A stretch of 64,000 bases of DNA, taken from an uncultured Dokdonia sp. Its GTDB lineage: Bacteria > Bacteroidota > Bacteroidia > Flavobacteriales > Flavobacteriaceae. The stretch spans positions 325-64,324 of the forward strand of contig NZ_CANLOB010000014.1 in NCBI RefSeq assembly GCF_947492815.1, written 5' to 3'. The translations under genes and the position numbers were made by a program. Of this stretch, positions 13,159-49,428 are shown piece after piece. Under the pieces are notes generated by a model, which was given only the letters and a program-made list of their open reading frames with translations, was not told the DNA's origin and made no database searches. Numbering within the stretch: the stretch's first letter is position 1; the number at the start of each line of letters is the position of its first letter.

Positions 13159-13221
13159 TTACTTGTTTTTATCTCCCTAGGGTAAAATTACTTTTGGTCA
13201 CAACTAATAACCATTTAACCC

Positions 13222-16035
13222 ATGAGAAAAATCTTAGTTTTTATATGTGTGATATGCTGTACTACTTTATTTTCTCAGACAGGAACTGTATCTGGTATAC
13301 TAGAAGAAGAAAATGGTCCACTTCCCGGTGTTACTATTCTTGTAAAAGGAACTCAAAACGGTACAGTGACCAATTTTGATGGCATCTACTCCATAGAATG
13401 TAGTGTAGGAGATATTCTTGTAATCAGTTATATAGGTTATAAAACTAGAGAAATCTTAGTCACTGAAAATATGTTCAGTGACGTATATGAAGAAGCCATA
13501 CTTCTTGTAAAATCTAAGCCTGTTCGTCTTATGCGACATGAAGATTATAAAGAGAATGTACGCTCCTTACCCAAGAAACTCATATTCAACCCAAAAGACC
13601 AAGACCCCATAAAGAAAAAACACTATGGATATGGCAAAGACCTTTATCGCATTGCTCAATTTAAAACTACTGATAAAGAGGTAAAAATATACCAGCAAAG
13701 ACCTCGGTTTTACAGCTATGAAATTGAATATATAGGAGGATCAGCACAACGATTTATTCAAGATAAGAATCTACCAAAGCTTCAACGTATTTTTGCACAA
13801 GGATCTAATGGTATTGACTGGGAAGGTCCAGAGACTGGCACTGTATTTTCATTTGGACCGCGCTTGTCTGAATTAGGTTTTGACAATAGCATTTATGATT
13901 ATGACACGAATGGTCGTCTCATCCCTTTAGGAGACGCAAACAATAACGCTATTCCTTACACAAACACCTTATTCCAGAATAGTCATAGAGATGAGCATTT
14001 TATCAGATTCTCTATAGATAACGAAAACTTCCGCTCTCTTAGTGGAAACTTTAAATATGCGACTATTAAAGACGTATTTGGAAGAGAGAATACTCAAAAT
14101 ATTCTTGCAGGAGCAAATTACTCAAGAAATGGTCAGCAATGGAATTTAGATTCTAGTATAAAATTCGGATCAACTGTTGATAATCAACCCAACATAAATG
14201 GTTTTCAGAACCTCTTACTATTCCAAAATTACATCACTCCATCTAGTTTTGATACCACACAAGGAATTGCATTAGCAGATGGAACACAACGCAGTTTTGC
14301 CCCAAACATATACAACAATCCACTTTGGTTATTAGATACGCACAGAAACAAATCCAGTACTTCAAGTTTATCTACAGCTGTTGCTATCAAAAGACCATTT
14401 ACAGGCGATTTACAACTTACATTAGGAGGTTCATTTACATACAATAACCACAAACAGCGTTTTGGTCTCCCTAATGCTACTGCTGGTTTTCTTGACGGAT
14501 ATGCTTCTCAAAAAACGATACACAACACAAAAGTAGAAGGCTTTGCAAAGTTTACTACAAATTTTATAATCTCAGAGATAGACATTATGAGTTTATCACG
14601 TTTTTCTATATCAAATGAGCAACTAGATTATGATTTTAATGAAGTTGTAGGGTTAAATACGCTTTCGCGAAAGCGTACTCCGCAACGCACTAATTATGAA
14701 CTTTTAAACAGTATTACTTTTGGCATTCCTATTTTTGATTATCAAGATCTTGATCTCACTTTAGGGAATACGAGTTATATCTCTACACTTCAAGAAGATG
14801 CATTATGGCAACCAAGCGTGAAGCTATTTGCCAATTTAAAACACGTATTAGATGAACTTTATATTCTTAATTTCATAAACTATTGGGGAGTCTCCACAGG
14901 ATATTCATTCTCTAATGCAAATAGCCCTTTACTCTATGGGAATACAAGTCATAACAGTTTAAACTTCTTACCTGAAAACACACTTACATACACTGCAAAT
15001 AATGATTTATTTACGGAAGGCTCTTTACAACTAGAAGATATTACTCGATTTGAAATAGGGAATGATTTCCGTTTTTTTAGAAATCATTTTTCACTGGACA
15101 CTAACTTTTTTGCAGAAACGCGAAGCAATGTTGTATTTCCTGTACTAGATGCTAATTATACACTTGCTAATGTAGCTACCGTAGAAAATAAAGGCATAGA
15201 AATTCATTTAGGTATTGATCACATACGTAAAGAAAAATTGCATTGGCACACTGGAATTACTTTTTCAAAAAACAGAACCAATGTCACAAAAATAAACTCA
15301 AATACTACCCGAGTGCCTATTAGTGGTTTTTCTAACATTCGACAGAACCTTATTGTGGGACAGCCTGCAGGGATTATTGTTGGGACTGCTTTTGAAAGAA
15401 ATACTAACAATCAAGTTGTTATTGACGATGCTGGATATCCAATAGTACAAACTGACTTACAAATAATTGGAGATCCCACACCCGATTTTCAAGTTGGACT
15501 TAGCAACCATTTTAAAATAGGAAAGCAATTACAAATAGCTTTTACAATAGACTGGAGACAAGGTGGAGACATTTGGAATGGCACACAGCAAGTACTTAAT
15601 TACTTTGGGAGATCTCAAGAGTCTGCACAACTAAGAAATACAGAAGGGTTTGTTTTTGAAGGCGTAAATACTTCCGGAACTATCAACACAACACCAGTTA
15701 ATTTTCTAAACCCAAATCAAGATGTACTTTCAAATAGGTGGACACGCTATGGTTTTTCTGGAGTAGGAGAATCTGGAATTGTAGATGGCACTTATATCAA
15801 TCTAAATGACATAACGATTTCTTATGATTTTATAAAACCCAAAAAGGGTTATGAATACAAGACATTCAAATCTATAAGACTTATCCTATATGGACATAAT
15901 CTACTTACCTATTCCAAGTATGATGGTGCTTCTCCATACACTTCTCTATTTGATGGACTCAGCGCACAAGCTCTCAACTTCTTCAATACTCCTTTGGTCT
16001 CTGAAATAGGTTTTAAAGTCAATTTAAAAATATAA
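13222..16035 (+). CDS. SusC/RagA-type outer-membrane beta-barrel apparently lacking the plug domain
   Basis: Signal peptide; carboxypeptidase-regulatory-like N-domain (GPLPGVTILVKGTQNGTVTNFDG); barrel motifs LPKLQRIFAQG, SFGP, GDPTPD, DWRQGGDIWNGT and C-terminal FFNTP...GFKVNLKI; no VVTG, IRG, VDG or GVIxITTK plug motifs. Confidence 0.8.
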   Translation: MRKILVFICVICCTTLFSQTGTVSGILEEENGPLPGVTILVKGTQNGTVTNFDGIYSIECSVGDILVISYIGYKTREILVTENMFSDVYEEAILLVKSKPVRLMRHEDYKENVRSLPKKLIFNPKDQDPIKKKHYGYGKDLYRIAQFKTTDKEVKIYQQRPRFYSYEIEYIGGSAQRFIQDKNLPKLQRIFAQGSNGIDWEGPETGTVFSFGPRLSELGFDNSIYDYDTNGRLIPLGDANNNAIPYTNTLFQNSHRDEHFIRFSIDNENFRSLSGNFKYATIKDVFGRENTQNILAGANYSRNGQQWNLDSSIKFGSTVDNQPNINGFQNLLLFQNYITPSSFDTTQGIALADGTQRSFAPNIYNNPLWLLDTHRNKSSTSSLSTAVAIKRPFTGDLQLTLGGSFTYNNHKQRFGLPNATAGFLDGYASQKTIHNTKVEGFAKFTTNFIISEIDIMSLSRFSISNEQLDYDFNEVVGLNTLSRKRTPQRTNYELLNSITFGIPIFDYQDLDLTLGNTSYISTLQEDALWQPSVKLFANLKHVLDELYILNFINYWGVSTGYSFSNANSPLLYGNTSHNSLNFLPENTLTYTANNDLFTEGSLQLEDITRFEIGNDFRFFRNHFSLDTNFFAETRSNVVFPVLDANYTLANVATVENKGIEIHLGIDHIRKEKLHWHTGITFSKNRTNVTKINSNTTRVPISGFSNIRQNLIVGQPAGIIVGTAFERNTNNQVVIDDAGYPIVQTDLQIIGDPTPDFQVGLSNHFKIGKQLQIAFTIDWRQGGDIWNGTQQVLNYFGRSQESAQLRNTEGFVFEGVNTSGTINTTPVNFLNPNQDVLSNRWTRYGFSGVGESGIVDGTYINLNDITISYDFIKPKKGYEYKTFKSIRLILYGHNLLTYSKYDGASPYTSLFDGLSAQALNFFNTPLVSEIGFKVNLKI

Positions 16036-16039
16036 CTCC

Positions 16040-19000
16040 ATGAAAAATCTATATATACTCATCCTTTTATTCTTTTGTTCGATGACTGTTACAGGACAGT
16101 TTTTTGAACCTATAGATCGTATAGAGAAAACATATTTACATACAGATCGTCCATTTTATTTTCCTGGAGAAACCATTTGGTTTAAAGGGTATATTACTAA
16201 TGCACATCAAGACATTACGCTTTTAAGTCAGGGAATTATTGTAGAACTCGTTTCTCCCAAAGGAGTTGTACTTAAAAAATCAAACCTATCTATAGAAGAT
16301 GGATATACCTATGGTGAATTTCTAATTGATGCATCTTGGGTAGGTGGCACATATACCATTAAAGCGTATACACAATGGTCTAAAAACTTTGGAGAAGAAG
16401 CACTTTTTACTAAAAATATTACAGTTCAAAAAATTATTCAACCTCGTTTACAATTAAAATTTGATTTTGAAAAAGAGGCCTATGGTCCTGGAAGTGTCGT
16501 GCATGCAAAACTCATTATAAAAGATTTAGAAAACAACGCACTTAAAAGCATCCCGTGTACATACACCCTTGCAATAGATGGAAGAATTGTTTCTAAAGAA
16601 ATTACGTCCACAACCCAAGAAGGTCTTCTTAACCTCAAGACTTCACTTCCTGAAGATTTATCGACTACAGATGTTATTGTACAGGCACAAATCCCTTTTG
16701 AAGGAAATATAGAATCTATTGCACGTAGCGTTCCTATTACACTAGACGCTATCGATTTACAATTTATGCCAGAAAGTGGTTATGCCTTAGAAGGCTATAA
16801 AAACACCATTGCCTTTAAAGCTTTAAACCCATACGGAAAGCCTGCAGACATAAGTGGTATTATCAAAAACTCAAAAGGAGAAGAAATAACTTCTTTTGAA
16901 AGCTTTCACAATGGTATGGGAAGTTTTGAACTTACTCCAAAATCAAATGAAACCTATACTGCTTTCATCACAAAACCTTTTACATCTACGATTGCATATC
17001 CTATACAGAAGATTCAGAAAGAAGGAACTACACTTCACTTAGCATCTTTAGAGAATAACATCGCAACTTTTACGATACATAGCACCTCAATTCAAGAATT
17101 ACAACTTGTCGCTTCTGATGTATTACAACAATGTTATGAAACCACAGTAAAAGTAAATTCCGAGGAAACAATTATTAAAGTTCCTGTAGATTCCATTGCT
17201 AGAGGAATTACAAAATTCTCATTGATAGCCTCTAATGATCAAATTGTTTCAGAACGACTTGTTTTTGTTAACTACGACAAAGCGTTAGATATTACAGTTC
17301 GTGTAGATAAAGAACACTATAACTTAAGAGATTCCGTAGTCGTTACAGTAAAAACAGCTGTACAAGACAAACCTGTTGCCGCAAATTTATCAATAGCTGT
17401 TGCTGACAATGCATTGCTCAGTTTTGCAGATGACAGACAAGATACTATTGAATCTTACTTTTTAGTATCATCAGAATTACAAGGATCTATATACAAGCCT
17501 AATTTTTACTTTGATGCTAAAGAAAAGAAGGCGAAAAAGGCTTTAGAATATCTACTTCTCACACATGGATGGCGATCTTATTTACAAACGATGCCTCCTG
17601 AAATCACAAAAGCAACCTTTGCTCCAGAAATACCCGCATTACGTAGGGTGTTTATAACAGATTCATTAAACAATCCAGTAAAAGCCAAACTACTTCTTAC
17701 TAAAAGGTATAGTGACGACGTTTGGACGCTTGAAACAAATGAAGAAGGCGTGGCTCAATTTCAATTAAACACAAACAACCCATATGGTAACTATACACTT
17801 ATTGCGTATACAGATGACAAAACCCCTCTTTTTATTCATGACTCAGCACCGATAAGCCGCACGCAAGAATCATTTGCCTACAGCCAAAATAACAATCGAT
17901 ATTTGGACACTAAAACAAGACAAATACTTCGTAATAAAAACAAGAACAACATCAATAAAAAAACAGCTAAAAAGAAGTTTGCTGTAAACGCAAATGCATC
18001 TACATCATTACTAGCATCTGAGAATGCCCTAAGTGAAGTAGTCGTTACTGGTTATGGTATAAAAAGAGAAAAAAAATCAGTAGGTTATGCTGTAAGTGAG
18101 GTAAATTCTGATGAGATAGAATTTCAAAGCGAAAGTAATTTAGCACGTTTACTTTCTAGAAAAGTATCTGGTATTGACATCACCTCGCAAAGCGGAGCCT
18201 CTGGAAGTGCTACCAATGTTGTTATAAGAGGTTACAATAGTGTTTCTGGAAGCAATCAAGCACTATTCATAGTAGATGGTGTTCCTTTTGATTATTCATC
18301 TATCGCATCTTCTCAAGTTAATGGAGGTCGTTTTTTAGATCTTGACCCAGAAAATATAGCTTCTGTCAATGTTTTAAAAGGGCTAGCAGCAGCCACACTA
18401 TATGGAACTGCAGGTAGAAATGGAGTGATTGTCATTACTACAAAGAATAAAACTCATCGTTACAGTATAAAAAAGAGATGGCGTAAAGATTACCCTGATG
18501 TTACCTATGCGATTAAAAACTTAAATACGTATAGAAATAAGGTATATCATAATACAAGCAAACGTTTCTACATGCCTATATATAATAATGCCGTCATTCC
18601 TGAGCAACGTGATGACTTTAGAAATACCATTTATTGGAACCCCGTAGTTCAAACGAATAATGAAGGCAAAGCTACATTTAAATTTTACACATCAGATGCT
18701 GTAACTTCTTTTAAAATAACAACTGAAGGCGTTAGCCACACAAGCGCATTGGGACGTTCGGAGACAGATATTAGCACAATAAAATTACTGAATCTAGACG
18801 TAAAGATTCCTCCATATCTATCAACAAGAGATACGGTTCAAATTCCAATTACTATTAGAAACAAACAAGACAAAGCTATTCAAGCAAAAGTCAACATTGA
18901 GCTTCCATCATCTATAACATTATTAGATTTCCCTTCTGAAGATCACATCACTATTCCTGCCAAAGGGTTTAAAGTAATCTACGCTTCTATTATCCCTACA

Positions 19001-20677
19001 GCAATAACAACATCTAGTCGTATTGTGATTACTGCTGACACCGAAAATTACAAAGATGCTATTAGTAAAGAAGTAGTTATCACATCTCCTTTCTTTCCTA
19101 ATGAAGCCAGTGTTTCTAGCTTAGAATCTGCTTCATACACATTAGATCTTAAAGATTATATCCCTTCTTCCGAAACTGGAAAAATCACTATATACACAGA
19201 TATTACAGCACAAGTATTTGATGGAATAGAAGGATTAATACGTAAACCATATGGTTGTTTTGAGCAAGCCTCAGCTACCATCTATCCCAATGTACTTGTC
19301 ATGCAATATTTTAAAGACATGGGTATTTCAAATCCAGAAGCAGAAAAAAAAGCCATGCAATATATACGCAAAGGTTATAGAAAGCTAAAAAGTTATGAAG
19401 TAAAAAGCGGAGGGTTTGATTGGTTTGGAGAAGCTCCCGCCGATGATGGTTTAACGGCTTATGGTATTCTTGAATTTACAGACATGAAAAAAATATATCC
19501 CGATGTAGATCAAAAACTCATTGATAGAACGACAACGTGGTTATTAAAACACAAAGACAATAAAGGAGGATTTCACGGCAATAATGGACACTCTGGTTTT
19601 TCAAAAGTTTCTAAAAATATTACAAACGCTTATATCATCTATGCGCTTGCTAATGCTGGACTTAACTATCAAATCTCTAAAGAATTTAATACAAGTGTAG
19701 AGGAGGCATTAACTTCTGAAGATACTTATAGAATGGCGCTTATGGTAAATGCTGCATTTGCAATGGGTAGAAAAAACGAGTCCTTGCAACTTATAGAAAA
19801 GCTAAAAGCAGTTATAAAGGATACTTCTTTTAAAGAACTCCCTATTGAACAAACAATAACGCACTCTTACGGCCGTGACAAAATAACAGAAACTGTTGCA
19901 CTTATTACAAGCGCTTTATTAAAAGAAGAAAAACCAGATAAGAAACTTATCTTCAAGTGTATTAATTACATTTCTAAACAACGTACCTATGGTCGTTTTG
20001 GATCTACACAAGCAACGGTATTATCATTAAAAGCATTGATTGCATTTGCAAAAACTCAAAAAGAAGCAACTAAAAATTCAGATCCGCTTATATATGTATC
20101 CTATAACGGCACTGAAACATCTTATAAAATTGATAAAAACACCACTGGTAAGATGGAAATTCCTATTGCCAGAGAAAATATGTCTCAAGGAAAACTAGCT
20201 ATTAACATACGCTACGATGATACAAAAATAGTACTTCCATACAGTATAGATACATACTGGGAAAGTAGTACTCCACAAGAAAAAGCGAAAGGATCATTAG
20301 AACTCATTACAGAAATCGTTTCTCAACCTATAAAAGTAGGTGACAACATCAGAATGAATGTTACTGTAGAAAACACAGACTCAAAACCTACTGGAATGGT
20401 TACTTCCATCATAGGAATACCTTCTGGAGCTACACCACAAATTTGGCAACTCAAGGAACTAGTAGAAAAGAAAGAAATTGATTTTTATGAGATTTCAGAA
20501 AATTTCCTTGTCATTTATTGGAGAACATTTAATCGCTTTGAGAAGAAAAAAATTGCGATAGACTTAAAAGCTGAAGTTGCGGGATCTTATACTGCACCTG
20601 CAAGCGCAGTATACCTTTATTATGGAGAAGAATACAAACACTGGCTCAAAGGAACACAAATTGAAATAGAAAAATAA
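16040..20677 (+). CDS. Alpha-2-macroglobulin-family thioester protein with internal TonB box and SusC plug domain
   Basis: MG2 start (YLHTDRPFYFPGETIWFK); plug at aa 664-802 (LSEVVVTGYG...VIRG...FIVDG...LKGLAAATLYGTAGRNGVIVITTK); A2M motif FRNTIYWNP; thioester PYGCFEQ at nt 19247-19267; C-terminal receptor-binding-like domain. Confidence 0.88.
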   Translation: MKNLYILILLFFCSMTVTGQFFEPIDRIEKTYLHTDRPFYFPGETIWFKGYITNAHQDITLLSQGIIVELVSPKGVVLKKSNLSIEDGYTYGEFLIDASWVGGTYTIKAYTQWSKNFGEEALFTKNITVQKIIQPRLQLKFDFEKEAYGPGSVVHAKLIIKDLENNALKSIPCTYTLAIDGRIVSKEITSTTQEGLLNLKTSLPEDLSTTDVIVQAQIPFEGNIESIARSVPITLDAIDLQFMPESGYALEGYKNTIAFKALNPYGKPADISGIIKNSKGEEITSFESFHNGMGSFELTPKSNETYTAFITKPFTSTIAYPIQKIQKEGTTLHLASLENNIATFTIHSTSIQELQLVASDVLQQCYETTVKVNSEETIIKVPVDSIARGITKFSLIASNDQIVSERLVFVNYDKALDITVRVDKEHYNLRDSVVVTVKTAVQDKPVAANLSIAVADNALLSFADDRQDTIESYFLVSSELQGSIYKPNFYFDAKEKKAKKALEYLLLTHGWRSYLQTMPPEITKATFAPEIPALRRVFITDSLNNPVKAKLLLTKRYSDDVWTLETNEEGVAQFQLNTNNPYGNYTLIAYTDDKTPLFIHDSAPISRTQESFAYSQNNNRYLDTKTRQILRNKNKNNINKKTAKKKFAVNANASTSLLASENALSEVVVTGYGIKREKKSVGYAVSEVNSDEIEFQSESNLARLLSRKVSGIDITSQSGASGSATNVVIRGYNSVSGSNQALFIVDGVPFDYSSIASSQVNGGRFLDLDPENIASVNVLKGLAAATLYGTAGRNGVIVITTKNKTHRYSIKKRWRKDYPDVTYAIKNLNTYRNKVYHNTSKRFYMPIYNNAVIPEQRDDFRNTIYWNPVVQTNNEGKATFKFYTSDAVTSFKITTEGVSHTSALGRSETDISTIKLLNLDVKIPPYLSTRDTVQIPITIRNKQDKAIQAKVNIELPSSITLLDFPSEDHITIPAKGFKVIYASIIPTAITTSSRIVITADTENYKDAISKEVVITSPFFPNEASVSSLESASYTLDLKDYIPSSETGKITIYTDITAQVFDGIEGLIRKPYGCFEQASATIYPNVLVMQYFKDMGISNPEAEKKAMQYIRKGYRKLKSYEVKSGGFDWFGEAPADDGLTAYGILEFTDMKKIYPDVDQKLIDRTTTWLLKHKDNKGGFHGNNGHSGFSKVSKNITNAYIIYALANAGLNYQISKEFNTSVEEALTSEDTYRMALMVNAAFAMGRKNESLQLIEKLKAVIKDTSFKELPIEQTITHSYGRDKITETVALITSALLKEEKPDKKLIFKCINYISKQRTYGRFGSTQATVLSLKALIAFAKTQKEATKNSDPLIYVSYNGTETSYKIDKNTTGKMEIPIARENMSQGKLAINIRYDDTKIVLPYSIDTYWESSTPQEKAKGSLELITEIVSQPIKVGDNIRMNVTVENTDSKPTGMVTSIIGIPSGATPQIWQLKELVEKKEIDFYEISENFLVIYWRTFNRFEKKKIAIDLKAEVAGSYTAPASAVYLYYGEEYKHWLKGTQIEIEK

Positions 20678-20928: not shown

Positions 20929-22143
20929 ATGAAAACACAATTATCTTTCATTATAGTATTCATAACCTTTATAGGTTATAGTCAAACATTTACAAATTAT
21001 ACAGTAGCAGATGGTGTTATTCCTGGTGTCATTTATGAAATCATTCAGGACACTGATGGGGACATTTGGTGTGTTGGTTGGACGGAACCCGATACGCCAG
21101 GTATTGGTAGATTTGATGGGACAGAATGGACTCAGTTCGGAACAGAAGACGGTCCGCACAGTAATACAATGGTCTCTTCCTTTCAGGATAGCAGTGGAAA
21201 TTATTGGTTTGGCTGTGTTCCTTTTTTTGGAGACGATGGTGTAAGCATGTTTGATGGGACAACTTGGATACAATTTTCTACGGCTGATGGATTAGCAGGT
21301 TCAAATGTAGAAGATATTATAGAGGATACAGATGGTAACATTTGGTTTGCCACAGGCGGTGGTGCCTCTATGTTTGATGGAACAACTTTTACAAATTACA
21401 CTATAGAAGATGGGTTATCATCTAATGCACTTACAGGTGTTATTCAGACTACTAATGGTGATTTTTGGTTTAGCACTGCAGACAGTGGTGCCATTCGATT
21501 TGATGGTACAACATTTACAAATATTACTGTAGAAGACGGACTTGCCTCTAATGAACTAAGCAGAGTTTTTCAGGATCAAAACGAAAATATCTGGTTCAGT
21601 TCGGGATTTAGCGATACAGGTTTGACACGGTTTGATGGTGACTCGTTTACCATATTCACTACCGTAGATGGACTCGCTTCAAATAACATACGAGAAATAG
21701 CTGAAGACAATGATGGAAATGTATGGTTTGGAGGAGGTTTTGGTGCATCACGTTTTGACGGTACAGACTGGTTGGTATTAGACCAAAGTGATGGACTCCT
21801 AAGTAGTGGCATAAGAGGCATAGAAGCTGATGATGAAGGCAATATATGGTTTGGAACTTTTGAAGGAGTAAGTGTTCTTAACGCAGGGTCTTTATCTACT
21901 GAAGAAGAAAACTTAACCTCATTTTCTATATTTCCTAACCCAGTTCAAGATCAGCTAACGATACAAGCTCCAGGTGCTTCAGCAGTCTTAAAAGTAAACC
22001 TATACAGCATATTAGGTGAACTTATTACATCGCAGGAAAACACAACAATTGTTGATATGTCAACACTTTCATCAGGAGTTTATTTTGCAGAAATCTTAGC
22101 GATCAATCAACAAGCGCAGACCATAAAAATCATTAAAAAGTAA
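20929..22143 (+). CDS. T9SS cargo: two-component-regulator-type beta-propeller plus type A C-terminal domain
   Basis: About seven repeats of FTxxDGLxSNxVxxIxEDxxGNIWF; CTD FPNPVQD...LSSGVYF...KIIKK; signal peptide. Confidence 0.85.
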   Translation: MKTQLSFIIVFITFIGYSQTFTNYTVADGVIPGVIYEIIQDTDGDIWCVGWTEPDTPGIGRFDGTEWTQFGTEDGPHSNTMVSSFQDSSGNYWFGCVPFFGDDGVSMFDGTTWIQFSTADGLAGSNVEDIIEDTDGNIWFATGGGASMFDGTTFTNYTIEDGLSSNALTGVIQTTNGDFWFSTADSGAIRFDGTTFTNITVEDGLASNELSRVFQDQNENIWFSSGFSDTGLTRFDGDSFTIFTTVDGLASNNIREIAEDNDGNVWFGGGFGASRFDGTDWLVLDQSDGLLSSGIRGIEADDEGNIWFGTFEGVSVLNAGSLSTEEENLTSFSIFPNPVQDQLTIQAPGASAVLKVNLYSILGELITSQENTTIVDMSTLSSGVYFAEILAINQQAQTIKIIKK

Positions 22144-22311: not shown

Positions 22312-23391
22312 CTATTTTTTTATAAAACGCTTAAATATATTTTTTTCATCCTTCATTACAAAATGAGCAATATACATTCCTTTAGCGAGGAAGCTCACAT
22401 CCAAGTACGTATGCATCGTATCTTCTATATACGTAGTAATAATGCGTCCGTTTACATCCAGAATATGCAGTTTTTCTAGGCCCTGCATTTGAAGTGTTAA
22501 AATATCTGCTACTGGATTAGGGGTAATAAGAATATCAGATAGCACCGAAGTATTTTTAACAGACAATACCTCTTCTGGAAAAAAGAAGATCGCTCCTTGA
22601 ACATTATCTGTAAAATATAATTTATTGTCATGCAGTGTGATATTCTCAATTTGATACACTTCTGGATCTAGTGTAATTGTTCTTGAAAATATCCATGGAG
22701 CTGACTGACTCGTATCAAAAATAGTAATGGAATTACTGTCTCTAAATAACACATATACTAAATTACCGTGTACTTCCAATTGATCTATAAATGCACCAAC
22801 ATCTATAAGTAGTTCTTTTGTAGTATTAAAAGAAGAGATTTCTGCTCTATGCAATCTAGTTCCCTCATCATAATATATAATATCATCTGCTACTGCAATA
22901 TTTTTTACATGGACACCACTATCGCCAAATATACTTCCATCTCCATAAGGGTCTATGTCGGTAAGTCTAAAAAATAAAGATCCAAAATCAGAAAAGGTAA
23001 AGAAGTATTCATCATTATATACTTTAAGATCATATAACTGCTGACTATTAAAATCCATAAACAAGCTAGCATCACTAATCTCGGCAGTATCAAATGGCGC
23101 TTTAAACCAATTAAAAACATCTCCAAAATACACGTAGGATTCGTCAGGGTTCCAAAAAAAGTATTTTATATCTCTCGGAATCTCTTCTATATTCACCAGT
23201 AATTGTGCTTCGGTTGGATTTAATAAAGCTACTTGTTTAAGGCCTTCTTGTTGTGCGATATAATACACATAATCATTTCTAATTTCTATCGGTCCTAAAT
23301 GATCACTTCCATCTTCATAAAACAATACTGGGGTTTGAGAGAACACGTGTACGGTGAGTAAGAAAATGAAAACAGAAAGTATATTTTTCAT
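22312..23391 (-). CDS. T9SS cargo protein, probable beta-propeller, with type A C-terminal domain
   Basis: Signal peptide; CTD ITPNPVAD...LAKGMY...KRFIKK. Confidence 0.75.
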   Translation of the reverse strand: MKNILSVFIFLLTVHVFSQTPVLFYEDGSDHLGPIEIRNDYVYYIAQQEGLKQVALLNPTEAQLLVNIEEIPRDIKYFFWNPDESYVYFGDVFNWFKAPFDTAEISDASLFMDFNSQQLYDLKVYNDEYFFTFSDFGSLFFRLTDIDPYGDGSIFGDSGVHVKNIAVADDIIYYDEGTRLHRAEISSFNTTKELLIDVGAFIDQLEVHGNLVYVLFRDSNSITIFDTSQSAPWIFSRTITLDPEVYQIENITLHDNKLYFTDNVQGAIFFFPEEVLSVKNTSVLSDILITPNPVADILTLQMQGLEKLHILDVNGRIITTYIEDTMHTYLDVSFLAKGMYIAHFVMKDEKNIFKRFIKK

Positions 23392-46278: not shown

Positions 46279-49200
46279 ATGAAGAAAGTATTACTTAAAA
46301 GTATGCTGCTGTTTGTCGCGGTTCTCTTTGCGGGAATTTCAACTGCCCAGACAGTTTCTGGAACAGTGACAGAGGATAATGGTCCTCTGCCGGGTGCAAA
46401 CGTAATTGTAAAAGGCACCCAAAATGGTGCTACTACCGACTTTGACGGTAACTACACTCTCAATAATGTAGCAAGTGATGCTATACTCGTATTTAGTTAT
46501 GTAGGATATTCTACGCAAGAGATTGCTGTAGGAGGAAGAAGCACTGTAAACGCAACATTATCTTTAGATAACGCGCTTGATGAAGTGGTATTAATTGGAT
46601 ATGGTACAACTACAGTTAAAGATGCTACAGGATCTGTTGCATCAGTTACTTCCGAAGAATTTAACCAAGGGGTTATTCAATCTCCTGAACAATTAATTCA
46701 AGGTAAAACTGCCGGAGTTCAAATTTCAGAAACATCTGGAGAGCCTGGAGCTGCTATTGTAGTAAACATTAGAGGTAACAATTCCATACGTTCTGGAAAC
46801 AACCCTCTATTTGTAGTTGACGGAGTACCATTAACTTCTGGTGCAGCACCTGCTGTAAACGTAGCTGGAATTGGTGGAGGAGCTTCAAGAAACCCACTTA
46901 GTTTCTTAAACCCAAATGATATAGAAAGTATTTCTATTCTTAAAGATGCATCAGCTACAGCGATCTACGGATCTCGTGGAGCAAATGGTGTAATTATCAT
47001 TCAAACAAAAGCTGGTCGTGGAGCTAGTAAAGGTATATGGGACATTAACACATCTGTAAGTGTTGCTAATACTGCAAATGAGTATGACTTATTAGGTAGA
47101 GACGCATTTTTAGAAAATATCGCAGAAGTAGGTAACGATCCTGTTGCACTTGACTTCGGATCTGATTCTGACTTCCAAGATTTTTATACACGTACTGCAT
47201 ACTCTAGAAGAACAGATTTAAGTTACTCTAAAAGTTATCAAGGAGGAAACTTAAGAGCTTCTTTCGGATATGCAAACACATTTGGTGTTGTTGAAAATAC
47301 AGATCAAGAGCGTATTGCTGGTCGTTTAAACATAACTCACAAATTTCTTGATGATAAATTGACATTAAGTGGTCAATTTAGTATCGCTAGAGTAAATGAT
47401 CAATTTGCTCCTGTATCTGGAGGTGCTGGTTCTACTGGAGATTTAATTGGAGCATCTATTACTCAGAATCCAACAGCTCCTATTGATCCTGACTTTACAC
47501 CAGGAGGTAACGTATTAAACCCTGTAAGTCTTTTAGAGAACTTCTTAGGAAGATCTAGATCTAATAGATTTTTAGGAAACTTATCTGCTACATATGCCAT
47601 AACTGAAGAACTTGACGCAAAAGTAACTGTAGGTTATGATGAAAATAATACAACGACTACTTCTGCATTCGGATCTGATGTTATTGGATTAAACGGTGTA
47701 TCTGGTATAGGTCGTGGTAACTTCAATACTTTTGATCAGGAAAATTCATTATTAGAAGCAACATTATCTTATAACAAAGAATTTTCAAATTCAAACTTAA
47801 GTGTTGTTGGAGGTTATTCTTATCAAGAATTTGCTCGTTCAGGATTCTTTGCTCAAGGAGCTGGTTTTAATTCTTCTAACTTAGATGGAACTTTAGGTCA
47901 ATTAGAGAATCAATTTGGTTTAATCCAAGGAGTAACTCCTGGAGGTATTCAAACTTTCGGATATGGTGCTGACGGAACATTCTTAAGTACATTTAATCCT
48001 AACGATACTGAAAATCCATTTACAACTGGACAAACACTTCCTAGCGTAAATCGTTTATTCTCTGCATATACAGGTGGAAATTTTGACAATACAGATGAAC
48101 TTCAGTCTTTCTTTGTAAGAGCAAACTATACGATTGCTGACAAATATTTATTTACTGGAACATTTAGAGCGGATGGTTCTACTACGTTTGGTGAAAATGA
48201 GCGTTATGGATATTTCCCTTCAGGAGCATTTGCATGGCAATTACACGAAGAAGATTTCATTGGAGATGCTTTTTCAACTCTTAAATTACGTTTAGGGGCA
48301 GGTATTGTTGGTAACCAAGAAGGTTTATCTTTTGCAAACTTTATTCAAGTAGAAAGACTTGCAGGAGCAGGTATTGCTAATGACTTTACTATTATAGGTA
48401 ATGGTAACAGTATTCCTGGTACATTCTTCCAAGGAGATCCAAACCCAGATTTAAAGTGGGAGGAAACTACTGACTTTAATGTTGGAGTAGATTTCGGATT
48501 TAATAACGATCGTTTCAATGGTACTGTTAACGTATACCGTAAAGAAACAAGAGATTTACTTTTATCAAGACCTCCTGCTGCACCAGCAACGCAACCAGTT
48601 ATTTTTGGTAACTTAGATGATGGTCTTGTATTAAACCAAGGAGTTGAAGTAGCTTTAAATTATGATTTCTTCGATACAGATGATTTCGGTTTTTCTGCTA
48701 GTTTCAATGTAGCGTTTAACAAGAACGAAGTTCAAGATACAGACTTAGTAATAGACTTAGGTCCTATTAACGGTAACGGTTTAACAGGTGCTTTTGCTCA
48801 GCGTTTACAGGCTGGAGAGCCATTAGGTTCTTTCTTCCTTGCTGAATTTACAGGATTTGACGGAGACGGAAACCCAACATATAGAGATGTAAACGGTGAT
48901 GGTGTAGGTGATCCAGATTCAGATAAAACGTTTGTAGGAGAATCTGCTATTCCTGAAATAACTTCAGGTTTATCATTAAATGCTCGTTACAAGAGATTTG
49001 ACTTATCAACATATTTTAATGGACAATTTGGATTCTCTGTATATAATGCTACTGATAACGCATTCTTTACAAGAGCTGGATTATTAATTGGTAAAAACGT
49101 AACACAAGCAGCTACCAACCCTGCAGAAAACCCTGCAGCAACAGTAGCAGTATCATCTAGATTCTTAGAGGCTGGAGATTTTGTACGTTTACAATCAGCA

Positions 49201-49428
49201 TCTTTAGGATACAATTGGCCAGTGAGCGAAGATGGAATCTTTGATTCATTAAGAATATCTCTTACAGGACAAAACTTATTTATTATTACTGATTATAGTG
49301 GATTAGATCCTGAAATCTCTGTAAACACAGGTACTATTAATGCTTCAGCTATCCCAGGTTCTGGTATAGATTATGCAGCATTCCCAAGACAAAGAACATT
49401 TACTCTAGGTGTAAATGCTAGATTTTAA
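46279..49428 (+). CDS. susC: SusC/RagA TonB-dependent transporter
   Basis: N-terminal extension, LDEVVLIG TonB box, plug (NPNDIESISILKDASATAIYGSRGANGVIII), barrel ending FPRQRTFTLGVNARF. Confidence 0.97.
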   Translation: MKKVLLKSMLLFVAVLFAGISTAQTVSGTVTEDNGPLPGANVIVKGTQNGATTDFDGNYTLNNVASDAILVFSYVGYSTQEIAVGGRSTVNATLSLDNALDEVVLIGYGTTTVKDATGSVASVTSEEFNQGVIQSPEQLIQGKTAGVQISETSGEPGAAIVVNIRGNNSIRSGNNPLFVVDGVPLTSGAAPAVNVAGIGGGASRNPLSFLNPNDIESISILKDASATAIYGSRGANGVIIIQTKAGRGASKGIWDINTSVSVANTANEYDLLGRDAFLENIAEVGNDPVALDFGSDSDFQDFYTRTAYSRRTDLSYSKSYQGGNLRASFGYANTFGVVENTDQERIAGRLNITHKFLDDKLTLSGQFSIARVNDQFAPVSGGAGSTGDLIGASITQNPTAPIDPDFTPGGNVLNPVSLLENFLGRSRSNRFLGNLSATYAITEELDAKVTVGYDENNTTTTSAFGSDVIGLNGVSGIGRGNFNTFDQENSLLEATLSYNKEFSNSNLSVVGGYSYQEFARSGFFAQGAGFNSSNLDGTLGQLENQFGLIQGVTPGGIQTFGYGADGTFLSTFNPNDTENPFTTGQTLPSVNRLFSAYTGGNFDNTDELQSFFVRANYTIADKYLFTGTFRADGSTTFGENERYGYFPSGAFAWQLHEEDFIGDAFSTLKLRLGAGIVGNQEGLSFANFIQVERLAGAGIANDFTIIGNGNSIPGTFFQGDPNPDLKWEETTDFNVGVDFGFNNDRFNGTVNVYRKETRDLLLSRPPAAPATQPVIFGNLDDGLVLNQGVEVALNYDFFDTDDFGFSASFNVAFNKNEVQDTDLVIDLGPINGNGLTGAFAQRLQAGEPLGSFFLAEFTGFDGDGNPTYRDVNGDGVGDPDSDKTFVGESAIPEITSGLSLNARYKRFDLSTYFNGQFGFSVYNATDNAFFTRAGLLIGKNVTQAATNPAENPAATVAVSSRFLEAGDFVRLQSASLGYNWPVSEDGIFDSLRISLTGQNLFIITDYSGLDPEISVNTGTINASAIPGSGIDYAAFPRQRTFTLGVNARF

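Follow-up and report, generated by a model that had tools for sequence, protein, structure and literature searches.

A TonB-dependent transporter is by definition one chain, whose plug arises within its own barrel. Plug and barrel are held together by a "site-2" ionic lock, which in FhuA sets E522 and E571 of the barrel facing R93 and R133 of the plug (PMC12940499). FhuA cork and barrel that were made separately reach the outer membrane, according to Braun et al. (2003, J Bacteriol 185:5508) as that work is cited in PMC2615193. The bacterial macroglobulins characterised so far are periplasmic protease traps (PMC4498604, PMC5764988), and in classical macroglobulins collapse is set off when the bait withdraws from the central channel (PMC9352918). 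Here we describe two adjacent genes, one for a SusC-class barrel without a plug and one for a thioester macroglobulin that carries a plug. No published description of such a pair was found in the literature searched, and a Tenacibaculum secretome paper mentions neither protein.

The window analyzed is a stretch of 64,000 nucleotides from an uncultured Dokdonia sp. (NCBI RefSeq assembly GCF_947492815.1, contig NZ_CANLOB010000014.1). All features of the gene pair given below lie on the + strand. An unbroken open reading frame (13222..16035) encodes a protein of 937 aa, which is ∼112 aa shorter than the canonical SusC of the same window (46279..49428, 1049 aa). It begins with a signal peptide (aa 1-19; 13222..13278) whose putative cleavage site, between LFS and QTG, was placed using the translation, a helix at aa 2-15 in the structural model and the family consensus FAQ-GTVSG that precedes the next domain. 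This domain is the SusC-type N-terminal extension, which is CarboxypepD_reg-like (aa 20-81; 13279..13464; PF13715, E 1.5e-13 at aa 26-81; pLDDT 82-87). It is the best-conserved part of the protein, with 55-65% identity across the family versus 26-41% for the barrel, and shares 38% identity with the N-terminus of the window's SusC. A linker follows (see below), and then the SusC-class β-barrel itself (aa 165-937 plus the stop codon; 13714..16035).

An AlphaFold2 model of the protein, built on a 60-sequence alignment, has a mean pLDDT of 86 and exceeds 90 over most of the barrel. Approximately 22 long strands can be counted in the DSSP string of the model. The best Foldseek match is the BT2264 SusC (5fq6; E 1.6e-46, TM 0.70), followed by RagA and BT1763, and the top matches are SusC or RagA structures throughout. 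Comparison with canonical SusC by hhalign likewise returned a probability of 100%. TIGR04056 matches in three stretches, the best of which pairs aa 580-936 with model positions 630-981, for a total of 177.3 bits; this is below the cutoff of 368.25 and compares with 665.5 bits for the window's canonical SusC. The only Pfam domain found in the 937-aa protein is CarbopepD_reg_2 (aa 26-81). It has no match to Plug (PF07715), which in the window's 1049-aa SusC occupies positions 113-238, nor was the SusC signature TIGR04057 found, and nowhere in the chain is there a TonB-box-like [DE]VV[VI] motif. The protein is a SusC-class barrel that lacks its own plug, TonB box and SusC signature. An earlier note on this DNA had called the barrel non-canonical, about one plug shorter than the intact SusC, and not the product of a frameshift. 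All of this holds.

The same note had placed about 80 Lys/Arg-rich residues (13462-13704, aa 81-161) at the plug position, between the N-terminal domain and the first strand. Because AlphaFold2 puts the first barrel strand at aa 165, the linker is ∼83 aa long (aa 82-164; 13465..13713). It is Lys-rich and mostly disordered: pLDDT is below 50 over aa 87-139, and two weak strands at aa 144-158 reach only ∼53. Lys and Arg make up 22% of the linker versus 9% of the whole protein, and its net charge is +6. The basic character is thus a property of this copy and is weaker in the family, where 73 members have a median Lys plus Arg content of 15% and a median net charge of +3. The length of the linker is kept in these 73 members (median 81 aa, range 65-107), and its sequence is the least conserved region of the protein, with 10-25% identity across the family. 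The linker models as a disordered tether without a plug fold, which answers in the negative the structural check that the earlier note had proposed.

That note had also heard, in NPKDQDPI...YG...KTT, a faint echo of the plug C-terminus. The echo can be recovered when whole-protein profiles are aligned by hhalign, where RIKxI of the linker pairs with DIESI of the plug and KVKLTYF with GVIxITTK. When a profile of the linker alone was compared with the SusC-plug and partner-plug profiles, the matches were insignificant (E 0.25 and 0.07, probability <1%), so that descent of the linker from a plug is unproven.

A gene of this kind might be the decaying remnant of a SusC whose plug was deleted, and both its length, ∼112 aa below that of canonical SusC, and its TIGR04056 score under the cutoff could be read in this way. 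We give that explanation practically no weight. The open reading frame is unbroken, dN/dS is 0.18 overall (0.16 in the barrel and 0.30 in the linker), and the barrel is modelled with confidence. Intact orthologues are present in Flavobacteriaceae, Cytophagales, Saprospiraceae, Chitinophagales and Bacteroidales, and among the 80 loci examined full-length orthologues down to 26% identity have the same architecture and an unchanged linker length. The two checks for decay that the earlier note suggested, dN/dS and homologues, were therefore both negative; a pseudogene is ruled out, and the barrel protein is selectively maintained and presumably functional.

The stop codon (TAA) of the barrel gene is separated by four nucleotides (CTCC; 16036..16039) from the ATG of the next gene, and no terminator-like site lies between them. 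This spacing suggests a single operon, possibly with translational coupling. The second gene (16040..20677) encodes the partner, an α-2-macroglobulin-like protein of 1545 aa with a thioester, in which Pfam recognizes MG2, MG4, Plug, A2M, TED_complement and A2M_recep. Among PDB sequences, CD109, human A2M and A2ML1 match its C-terminal half and BT2264 matches aa 646-804; its sequence is closer to those of CD109 and A2M (E ∼1e-24) than to that of YfhM (E 5.5e-5). The thioester motif GCFEQ (aa 1072-1076; 19253..19267) lies within the TED (PF07678, E 8.6e-26) and is invariant among the 22 partners displayed.

The TonB box and plug that the barrel protein lacks are found together in the partner (aa 663-806; 18026..18457), at the position of the bait region between MG4-6 and MG7. 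The plug (PF07715, E 5e-17 at aa 678-796) shares 39% identity with that of the window's own SusC; the segment matches TIGR04056 model positions 60-318 and has the SusC signature TIGR04057 at aa 773-802. The TonB box is of SusC type (EVVVTGYG, aa 666-673; 18035..18058) and aligns to the TonB-box region of the same SusC; L-x-EVVV-x-GYG is kept in partners of five orders. In an AlphaFold2 model of the plug region, which covers aa 400-1010, the plug is flanked on both sides by low-confidence linkers of about 40-80 aa. The first is Lys/Asn-rich and precedes the TonB box (aa 605-662; 17852..18025; pLDDT <50 at aa 605-685), and the second leads into MG7 (aa 807-862; 18458..18625), with pLDDT <50 at aa 807-845 and >88 at aa 863-1010. 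By its features the partner is a thioester-type α-2-macroglobulin in which the bait is represented in position only, the plug sitting there instead.

Comparison of the N-termini of 22 homologues indicates a Sec-type signal peptide for the partner and no conserved lipobox Cys, and the partner has no Por_Secre_tail or other T9SS C-terminal domain. Display as a lipoprotein or through T9SS is rejected on these grounds, and the periplasm is the default location. An adjoining barrel gene and a large secreted passenger that has neither lipid anchor nor T9SS signal do recall TpsB/TpsA, and a protease trap on the cell surface would be biologically sensible. The barrel might then serve as an export or display pore for the macroglobulin, as in two-partner secretion, with the plug left behind as an anchor and the body on the cell surface. 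We consider this most improbable. A TonB box is conserved where the plug begins on its N-terminal side and implies periplasmic plug termini, as in every TonB-dependent transporter, and folded MG/TED domains of ∼640 aa and ∼740 aa, on either side of the plug, would have to cross the pore. Characterised bacterial macroglobulins are also periplasmic (PMC4498604, PMC5764988).

The pairing is strict. In all 80 best-matching Bacteroidota loci that were fetched, from at least five orders, the partner gene comes next after the barrel gene and on the same strand, mostly at a distance of 2-5 nucleotides or with a short overlap. Matches to a plug HMM were found in none of the 80 barrels and in 76 of the 77 partners that were sequenced across the plug region; the exception, L072, has an intact barrel and a partner that lost most of its plug core. 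Distances among barrels and among partners correlate (r = 0.92). Two related macroglobulins whose bait is of the ordinary kind, long and charged, and which carry no plug also have no adjoining barrel. In addition, one locus (L090) encodes a protein of ∼900 aa that combines MG domains with a plug but has no plugless barrel nearby, which means that a plug on a macroglobulin scaffold can have a function for which no dedicated barrel is required. In a sample of ∼400 Bacteroidota genomes, evenly chosen, the pair was found in four and was adjacent in all four. The tally of the barrel-based search is a lower bound, as dozens of SusC paralogues occur in a genome and only two candidates were scored in each; the partner-based search is the more reliable of the two. 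Databases label the barrels "carboxypeptidase-like regulatory domain-containing protein" and the partners "TonB-dependent receptor plug domain-containing protein", and these current labels conceal the pairing.

No third gene is conserved. In the window, the macroglobulin-like partner is followed by genes for two T9SS-tailed proteins, an ABC ATPase and a methyltransferase are encoded upstream of the barrel, and these neighbours recur in close relatives only. There is no gene for a SusD-like lipoprotein beside the barrel and no CAZyme context at the locus.

Both gaps matter for the proposal that the barrel is an autonomous diffusion channel, either open or sealed by loops or the linker of the barrel protein itself, and that the macroglobulin next to it is regulatory or incidental. 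SusC-like transporters that are naturally plug-poor and lidless are reported to be widespread in Bacteroidota, and a SusC engineered to lack its plug proved viable and functional (bioRxiv 10.1101/2025.11.13.688124); the kept length of the linker and its two weak strands (aa 144-158) might also fit self-gating. Nevertheless, this proposal looks quite improbable. Adjacency in 80 of 80 loci at 2-5 nucleotides, across orders and with no other neighbour conserved, is not incidental. The linker is modelled with low pLDDT, varies more than any other region and does not significantly resemble plugs, and the CAZyme and SusD surroundings are absent. The earlier note had inferred an open or externally gated barrel. 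An open barrel is rather unlikely. External gating fares better, since the gate most likely does lie outside the barrel chain; what had been overlooked is the TonB box and plug encoded by the adjacent downstream gene, which would act from the periplasm and not from outside.

The reading that we favour is a split TonB-dependent transporter, in which the plug of the periplasmic macroglobulin docks in the lumen of the barrel. We infer docking from the complementary domain content of the two proteins and from their co-occurrence, and put its probability at roughly 45%. The barrel protein would provide the pore and the N-terminal domain, and the macroglobulin would provide a TonB-responsive plug that enters the empty barrel from the periplasmic side. 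With its plug in the barrel, the macroglobulin would be tethered under the outer membrane. TonB would presumably act on the partner's plug, and the purpose of the arrangement may be the capture of proteases or intruders at the outer-membrane pore.

Residues of the ionic lock bear on whether the plug sits in the lumen. The FhuA lock positions were mapped by using hhalign to align FhuA to the SusC profile. Acidic residues occupy barrel position 611 (the counterpart of FhuA E522) in 49 of 73 barrels versus 30 of 31 canonical SusCs, and position 660 (that of FhuA E571) in 68 of 73 (93%) versus 31 of 31. On the plug side, 72 of 72 partners have the Arg of the IRG motif (R730) and 69 of 72 have a Lys or Arg in the VLK motif; each is present in 31 of 31 canonical SusCs. 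The lock thus appears to be partly retained, a pattern compatible with a looser plug supplied in trans but no proof of one.

The history of the plug was also considered. The partner's plug is 74% identical to that of a second SusC encoded in this genome versus ∼40% to the plugs of orthologous partners. Plugs of the window's partner and of Dokdonia-type partners nest in a canonical SusC clade in both a FastTree and an IQ-TREE quick tree (support 99 and 98). A plug swap with a canonical SusC in this lineage is suggested rather than shown, because in an AU test a single clade of all partner plugs was not rejected (p = 0.148). No change in the barrel matches the apparent swap.

Several of these observations run against docking in the lumen, namely the relaxed E522 equivalent, the gutted plug of L072, the MG-plug protein of L090 that has no barrel, and the swap without a change in the barrel. 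They leave room for an explanation that we regard as possible, if somewhat unlikely, in which both proteins cooperate at the outer membrane while the plug stays outside the lumen. The plug and TonB box would then form a bait module that is operated by TonB or is sensitive to proteases, a role they may also have in MG proteins that carry a plug and lack a barrel. The barrel would be a channel or an anchor that contacts the partner in some other way, for example through its N-terminal domain on the 80-aa tether, and the high conservation of that domain (55-65%) and the kept tether length are in keeping with this role. So are the existence of a barrel-less protein with MG domains and plug, the relaxation of one lock glutamate, the retention of the pair at L072 despite the gutted plug, and the apparent exchangeability of the partner's plug with canonical SusC plugs. 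This explanation, however, leaves unexplained why precisely this SusC barrel lost the very elements, TonB box and plug, that its neighbour gained, and why barrels are absent beside plugless macroglobulins. An unplugged barrel of 22 strands would be a very large hole unless otherwise closed, an acidic residue is still found in 93% of barrels at the FhuA E571 position, and the plug arginine does not vary.

If the plug does dock in the lumen, a more elaborate device can be imagined, which we offer as an unlikely extension. The pair would be a new kind of machine in the cell envelope, in which an outer-membrane pore is energised by TonB and plugged by the "bait" of a periplasmic thioester macroglobulin, with the trap fired at the pore. 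An external protease cutting the pore-exposed plug, or TonB pulling the plug out, would be the equivalent of bait cleavage. The thioester trap would then fire right under the breached or opened pore, and sensing or import at the outer membrane would be coupled to covalent capture of the intruder.

Were the split transporter confirmed, assembly of plug and barrel in trans would occur in nature, with a bearing on how BAM folds such proteins. TonB would gain a 170-kDa periplasmic thioester protein as a client, and the mechanics of nutrient transporters would be joined to complement-like protease traps, two fields between which no contact has been known in bacteria. Even if the barrel is not closed by this plug, the family remains a conserved SusC barrel that naturally lacks a plug.

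Among known systems, the SusC/RagA family (TIGR04056; BT2264, BT1763 and RagA) shares with the barrel protein the CarboxypepD_reg-like N-terminal extension, the SusC-class barrel fold and conserved barrel motifs including N650, G658 and E660. In that family the plug and TonB box are part of the same chain, whereas here they are on a separate polypeptide, and there is no adjoining SusD-like gene. In the split FhuA, reportedly an engineered construct, two exported polypeptides, plug and barrel, assembled in the outer membrane, which makes it a mechanistic precedent for plugging in trans; its cork was reportedly a free domain, and the plug here is inserted in a thioester protein of 1545 aa. "Type S" SusC-like transporters and plug-deleted BACOVA_04505 (bioRxiv 10.1101/2025.11.13.688124) are, like the barrel described here, without a Pfam Plug. 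Type S transporters are located in CAZyme clusters, are proposed to import small sugars and have no plug-bearing partner described; here the sole conserved neighbour is a plug-bearing macroglobulin. Two-partner secretion (FhaC/FHA) resembles this locus in having a barrel gene that adjoins the gene for a large exported partner. The resemblance is an analogy only, as that system uses a 16-strand Omp85 barrel with POTRA domains and a TPS domain in place of a SusC-class barrel and a TonB box with plug. The α-2-macroglobulins (bacterial type I, E. coli ECAM/YfhM, PDB 4ziq and 5a42, PMC4498604; eukaryote-type CD109, A2M and A2ML1) share MG domains, a thioester TED and a receptor-binding-like C-terminal domain with the partner. 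The partner differs from them in having a folded module of TonB box and plug in place of the flexible bait, and in having no lipid anchor. Bacterial macroglobulin genes usually accompany pbpC or mag/yfa genes; the partner is instead obligately paired with an outer-membrane barrel.

The SusC-like gene (13222..16035, +) is an unbroken ORF of 937 aa, as the earlier note had stated, against 1049 aa for the canonical SusC of the window (46279..49428). Its sole Pfam match is a CarboxypepD_reg-like N-terminal domain (aa 26-81); Pfam finds no Plug domain, NCBIfam no SusC signature, and no TonB-box-like motif lies anywhere along the protein. The match to the NCBIfam SusC/RagA model is sub-threshold (177 bits, cutoff 368), while the canonical SusC gives Plug at 113-238 and 665 bits. 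The protein was modelled with AlphaFold2 from a 60-sequence alignment (mean pLDDT 86.4, pTM 0.77), with pLDDT ∼85 for the N-terminal domain (residues 20-79) and mostly >90 for the barrel, which starts at residue 165. Foldseek matched the barrel model best to BT2264 (5fq6; E 1.6e-46, TM 0.70), followed by BT1763, dextran SusC, ButC and RagA. The protein works like SusC and descends from it. Note that the C-terminus of the family reads ...NLKI (window 16030-16035; conservation of Lys936 ≥90%), unlike the canonical SusCs aligned here, which end in an aromatic residue (Phe). Note also that barrels of the Dokdonia-type loci (L052, L053, L058 and L067) are just 802-807 aa, and that the three segments absent from them (window aa 190-248, 350-369 and 794-843) are probably extracellular loops. 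At 13185-13195, ∼27 nt 5' of the barrel ATG, is a Bacteroidota -7 promoter element of the TAnnTTTG type (TACTTTTG); a sigma-70 scan gave fewer hits than shuffled sequence.

At 13462-13704 (aa 81-161) the earlier note had placed a short Lys/Arg-rich linker where the plug should be, and, since the protein has neither Plug domain nor TonB box and K+R in the linker is 22% versus 9% protein-wide (net charge +6), that observation was correct. Structure prediction gave no plug fold there, with pLDDT <50 for residues 87-139 and ∼53 for two short strands at residues 144-158. When the family was aligned with canonical SusCs profile to profile (probability 100%), the ∼160-aa SusC plug segment stood opposite the linker only, with large gaps, and the alignment picked up again at the post-plug motif (NLPxLQ..QG versus P..QN.YGQG). 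The faint echo of the plug C-terminus that had been noted is visible in this whole-family alignment; with the linker profile by itself, similarity to plug profiles does not reach significance (E 0.25 and 0.07). Conservation over 73 family members is lowest in the linker, at 10-25% identity to the window copy, compared with 26-41% in the barrel and 55-65% in the N-terminal domain; its length is kept (median 81 aa, range 65-107) and its basicity is not (median K+R 15%, median net charge +3). We take the stretch for a tether whose length is set, rather than for a plug. What the earlier note called a “short basic linker” marks where a domain, now encoded by the neighboring gene, used to be.

Decay of the gene, which the earlier note had proposed checking by dN/dS, is ruled out by a dN/dS of 0.18 for the whole protein and by intact barrels of the same architecture in all 80 best-matching loci from a genome scan, drawn from Flavobacteriaceae, Saprospiraceae, Cytophagales, Chitinophagales and Bacteroidales. 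Values were calculated against L001, the closest DNA homologue (70% amino-acid identity), and were 0.16 for the barrel, 0.16 for the N-terminal domain and 0.30 for the linker; all are approximate because dS is ∼1.1. In the protein database there are ∼36 relatives, 790-971 aa long, and a Plug domain is absent from all of them.

The plug is found next door. The partner gene (16040..20677, +; 1545 aa) starts 4 nt after the barrel stop (TAA CTCC ATG), with no terminator found between the two genes, and encodes an alpha-2-macroglobulin superfamily protein with MG2, MG4, A2M, TED and receptor-binding-like domains and an intact thioester motif (GCFEQ, aa 1072-1076). At its bait-region position, between MG4 and the A2M/MG7 domain, it carries a SusC-type module consisting of a TonB box (EVVVTGYG, aa 666-673), a Pfam Plug (aa 678-796, E 5e-17) and a SusC signature (aa 773-802); it matches the NCBIfam SusC model at positions 60-318, and its plug segment is 39% identical to that of the window's SusC. 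Modelling of aa 400-1010 gave confident MG domains on both flanks, moderate confidence for the plug, and low-confidence linkers on either side of it (aa 605-685 and 807-845). Partners from five orders keep the TonB box, an invariant GCFEQ and a Sec-type signal peptide in which no lipobox cysteine is conserved; these signals, with the absence of a T9SS C-terminal domain from the partner, would by default place it in the periplasm. The two genes after the pair, 20929-22143(+) and 22312-23391(-), encode T9SS-tailed proteins, one with Reg_prop repeats and Por_Secre_tail and the other with Por_Secre_tail only, and are not conserved beside the pair in other genera.

The partner directly follows the barrel on the same strand in 80/80 loci, usually with a gap of 2-5 nt or a slight overlap. 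None of the 80 barrels matches a plug HMM; of the partners, 77 are sequenced across the plug region, and 76 of these have the plug. Other neighboring genes are not conserved, which makes this a two-gene module. An even sample of ∼400 Bacteroidota genomes yielded the partner architecture in four besides the window's own, each with the barrel immediately upstream (4/4), and barrel and partner divergences correlate (r = 0.92). Sister macroglobulins in two loci (L087:3312-7784(-) and L088:6174-10880(+)), 35-36% identical to the partner on both halves and with a TED domain, serve as a natural control: they carry one or two CarboxypepD_reg-like domains followed, where the window's partner has its plug, by a long bait-like stretch that is charged and disordered, they have neither plug nor TonB box, and no barrel gene lies next to either. 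We consider the pair real (probability ∼0.95), and physical cooperation between the two proteins likely. The open or externally gated barrel of the earlier note is partly supported, in that the barrel is plugless; a SusC-type plug and TonB box lie in the adjoining gene.

Together the pair holds the domains of one canonical SusC plus a macroglobulin, with N-terminal domain and barrel on one chain and TonB box and plug on the other. In the simplest mechanism the partner plug would enter the empty barrel from the periplasm. Both plug termini face the periplasm in every known TonB-dependent transporter, which agrees with a plug suspended from a periplasmic body by a flexible linker at each end. 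In E. coli, FhuA cork and barrel synthesized as separate chains are both built into the outer membrane (Braun et al. 2003, as cited in PMC2615193). We also mapped FhuA residues onto the SusC profile to assess “site-2” (PMC12940499), a conserved ionic lock between plug and barrel. The IRG arginine of the plug, here on the partner, is present in 72/72 versus 31/31 canonical SusCs; barrel position E660 (FhuA E571) is acidic in 68/73 versus 31/31, and E611 (FhuA E522) in 49/73 versus 30/31. These counts are compatible with, and not proof of, a plug-barrel contact that is retained but looser. Trans-plugging is plausible and unproven, and a plug seated in the barrel lumen should be taken as a tentative placement, at slightly less than even odds.

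Some macroglobulin-like proteins carry a plug with no such barrel. Two loci encode ∼900-aa proteins with MG2 and CarboxypepD_reg and without TED (L090:7927-10641(+) and L091:6028-8754(-)), the former with a C-terminal plug; no plugless barrel was found near either, and the nearest TonB-dependent receptor in L090 carries its own plug. When carried by a macroglobulin scaffold, a plug may thus serve a role for which no barrel is needed. Caution against the lumen reading also comes from the one exceptional partner (L072, 3089-7618(+), a Cytophagales MAG), in which the TonB box, IRG motif and DG motif remain and most of the plug core is gone, beside an intact upstream plugless barrel of 990 aa. A further caution is that the window's partner plug (18026-18457) is 74% identical to the plug (G000:C3:113253-113747, L082) of a canonical SusC of 1097 aa encoded elsewhere in the genome, versus ≤39% to other SusC plugs of that genome and ∼40% to orthologous partner plugs. 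In trees, the partner plugs of the window, the Dokdonia-type loci (L052, L053, L067), L058 and L032 fall inside that SusC clade (support 98-99); an AU test for a single partner-plug clade does not reject single origin (p = 0.148). The L082 match and the tree placement suggest that plugs have been exchanged, or converted, between genuine SusC genes and the macroglobulin gene. Among the 80 loci, the window's partner has its closest full-length relatives in L052, L053, L058 and L067 (47-49% identity), whose plugs are the most similar of any locus (51-66%).

Public annotation of both proteins is generic, and literature searches found no paper on a plugless SusC barrel with a plug-bearing macroglobulin. 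If the plug docks in the barrel, the pair would amount to a TonB-dependent transporter split by nature between two chains, and TonB would gain a new client, which should be of high interest to specialists. Earlier work describes plug-poor SusC-like barrels and a plug-deleted SusC that is viable (bioRxiv 10.1101/2025.11.13.688124), with no plug-bearing partner reported there. Bacterial macroglobulins characterized so far are periplasmic protease traps (PMC4498604, PMC5764988), and the partner, a thioester member of the superfamily, is by sequence nearer CD109 and A2M than E. coli YfhM. A SusC/RagA transporter has a TonB box, plug, signature, cutoff score and SusD partner, and the barrel protein has none of the five; the pair combines features of two known kinds, the SusC transporter and the thioester macroglobulin.
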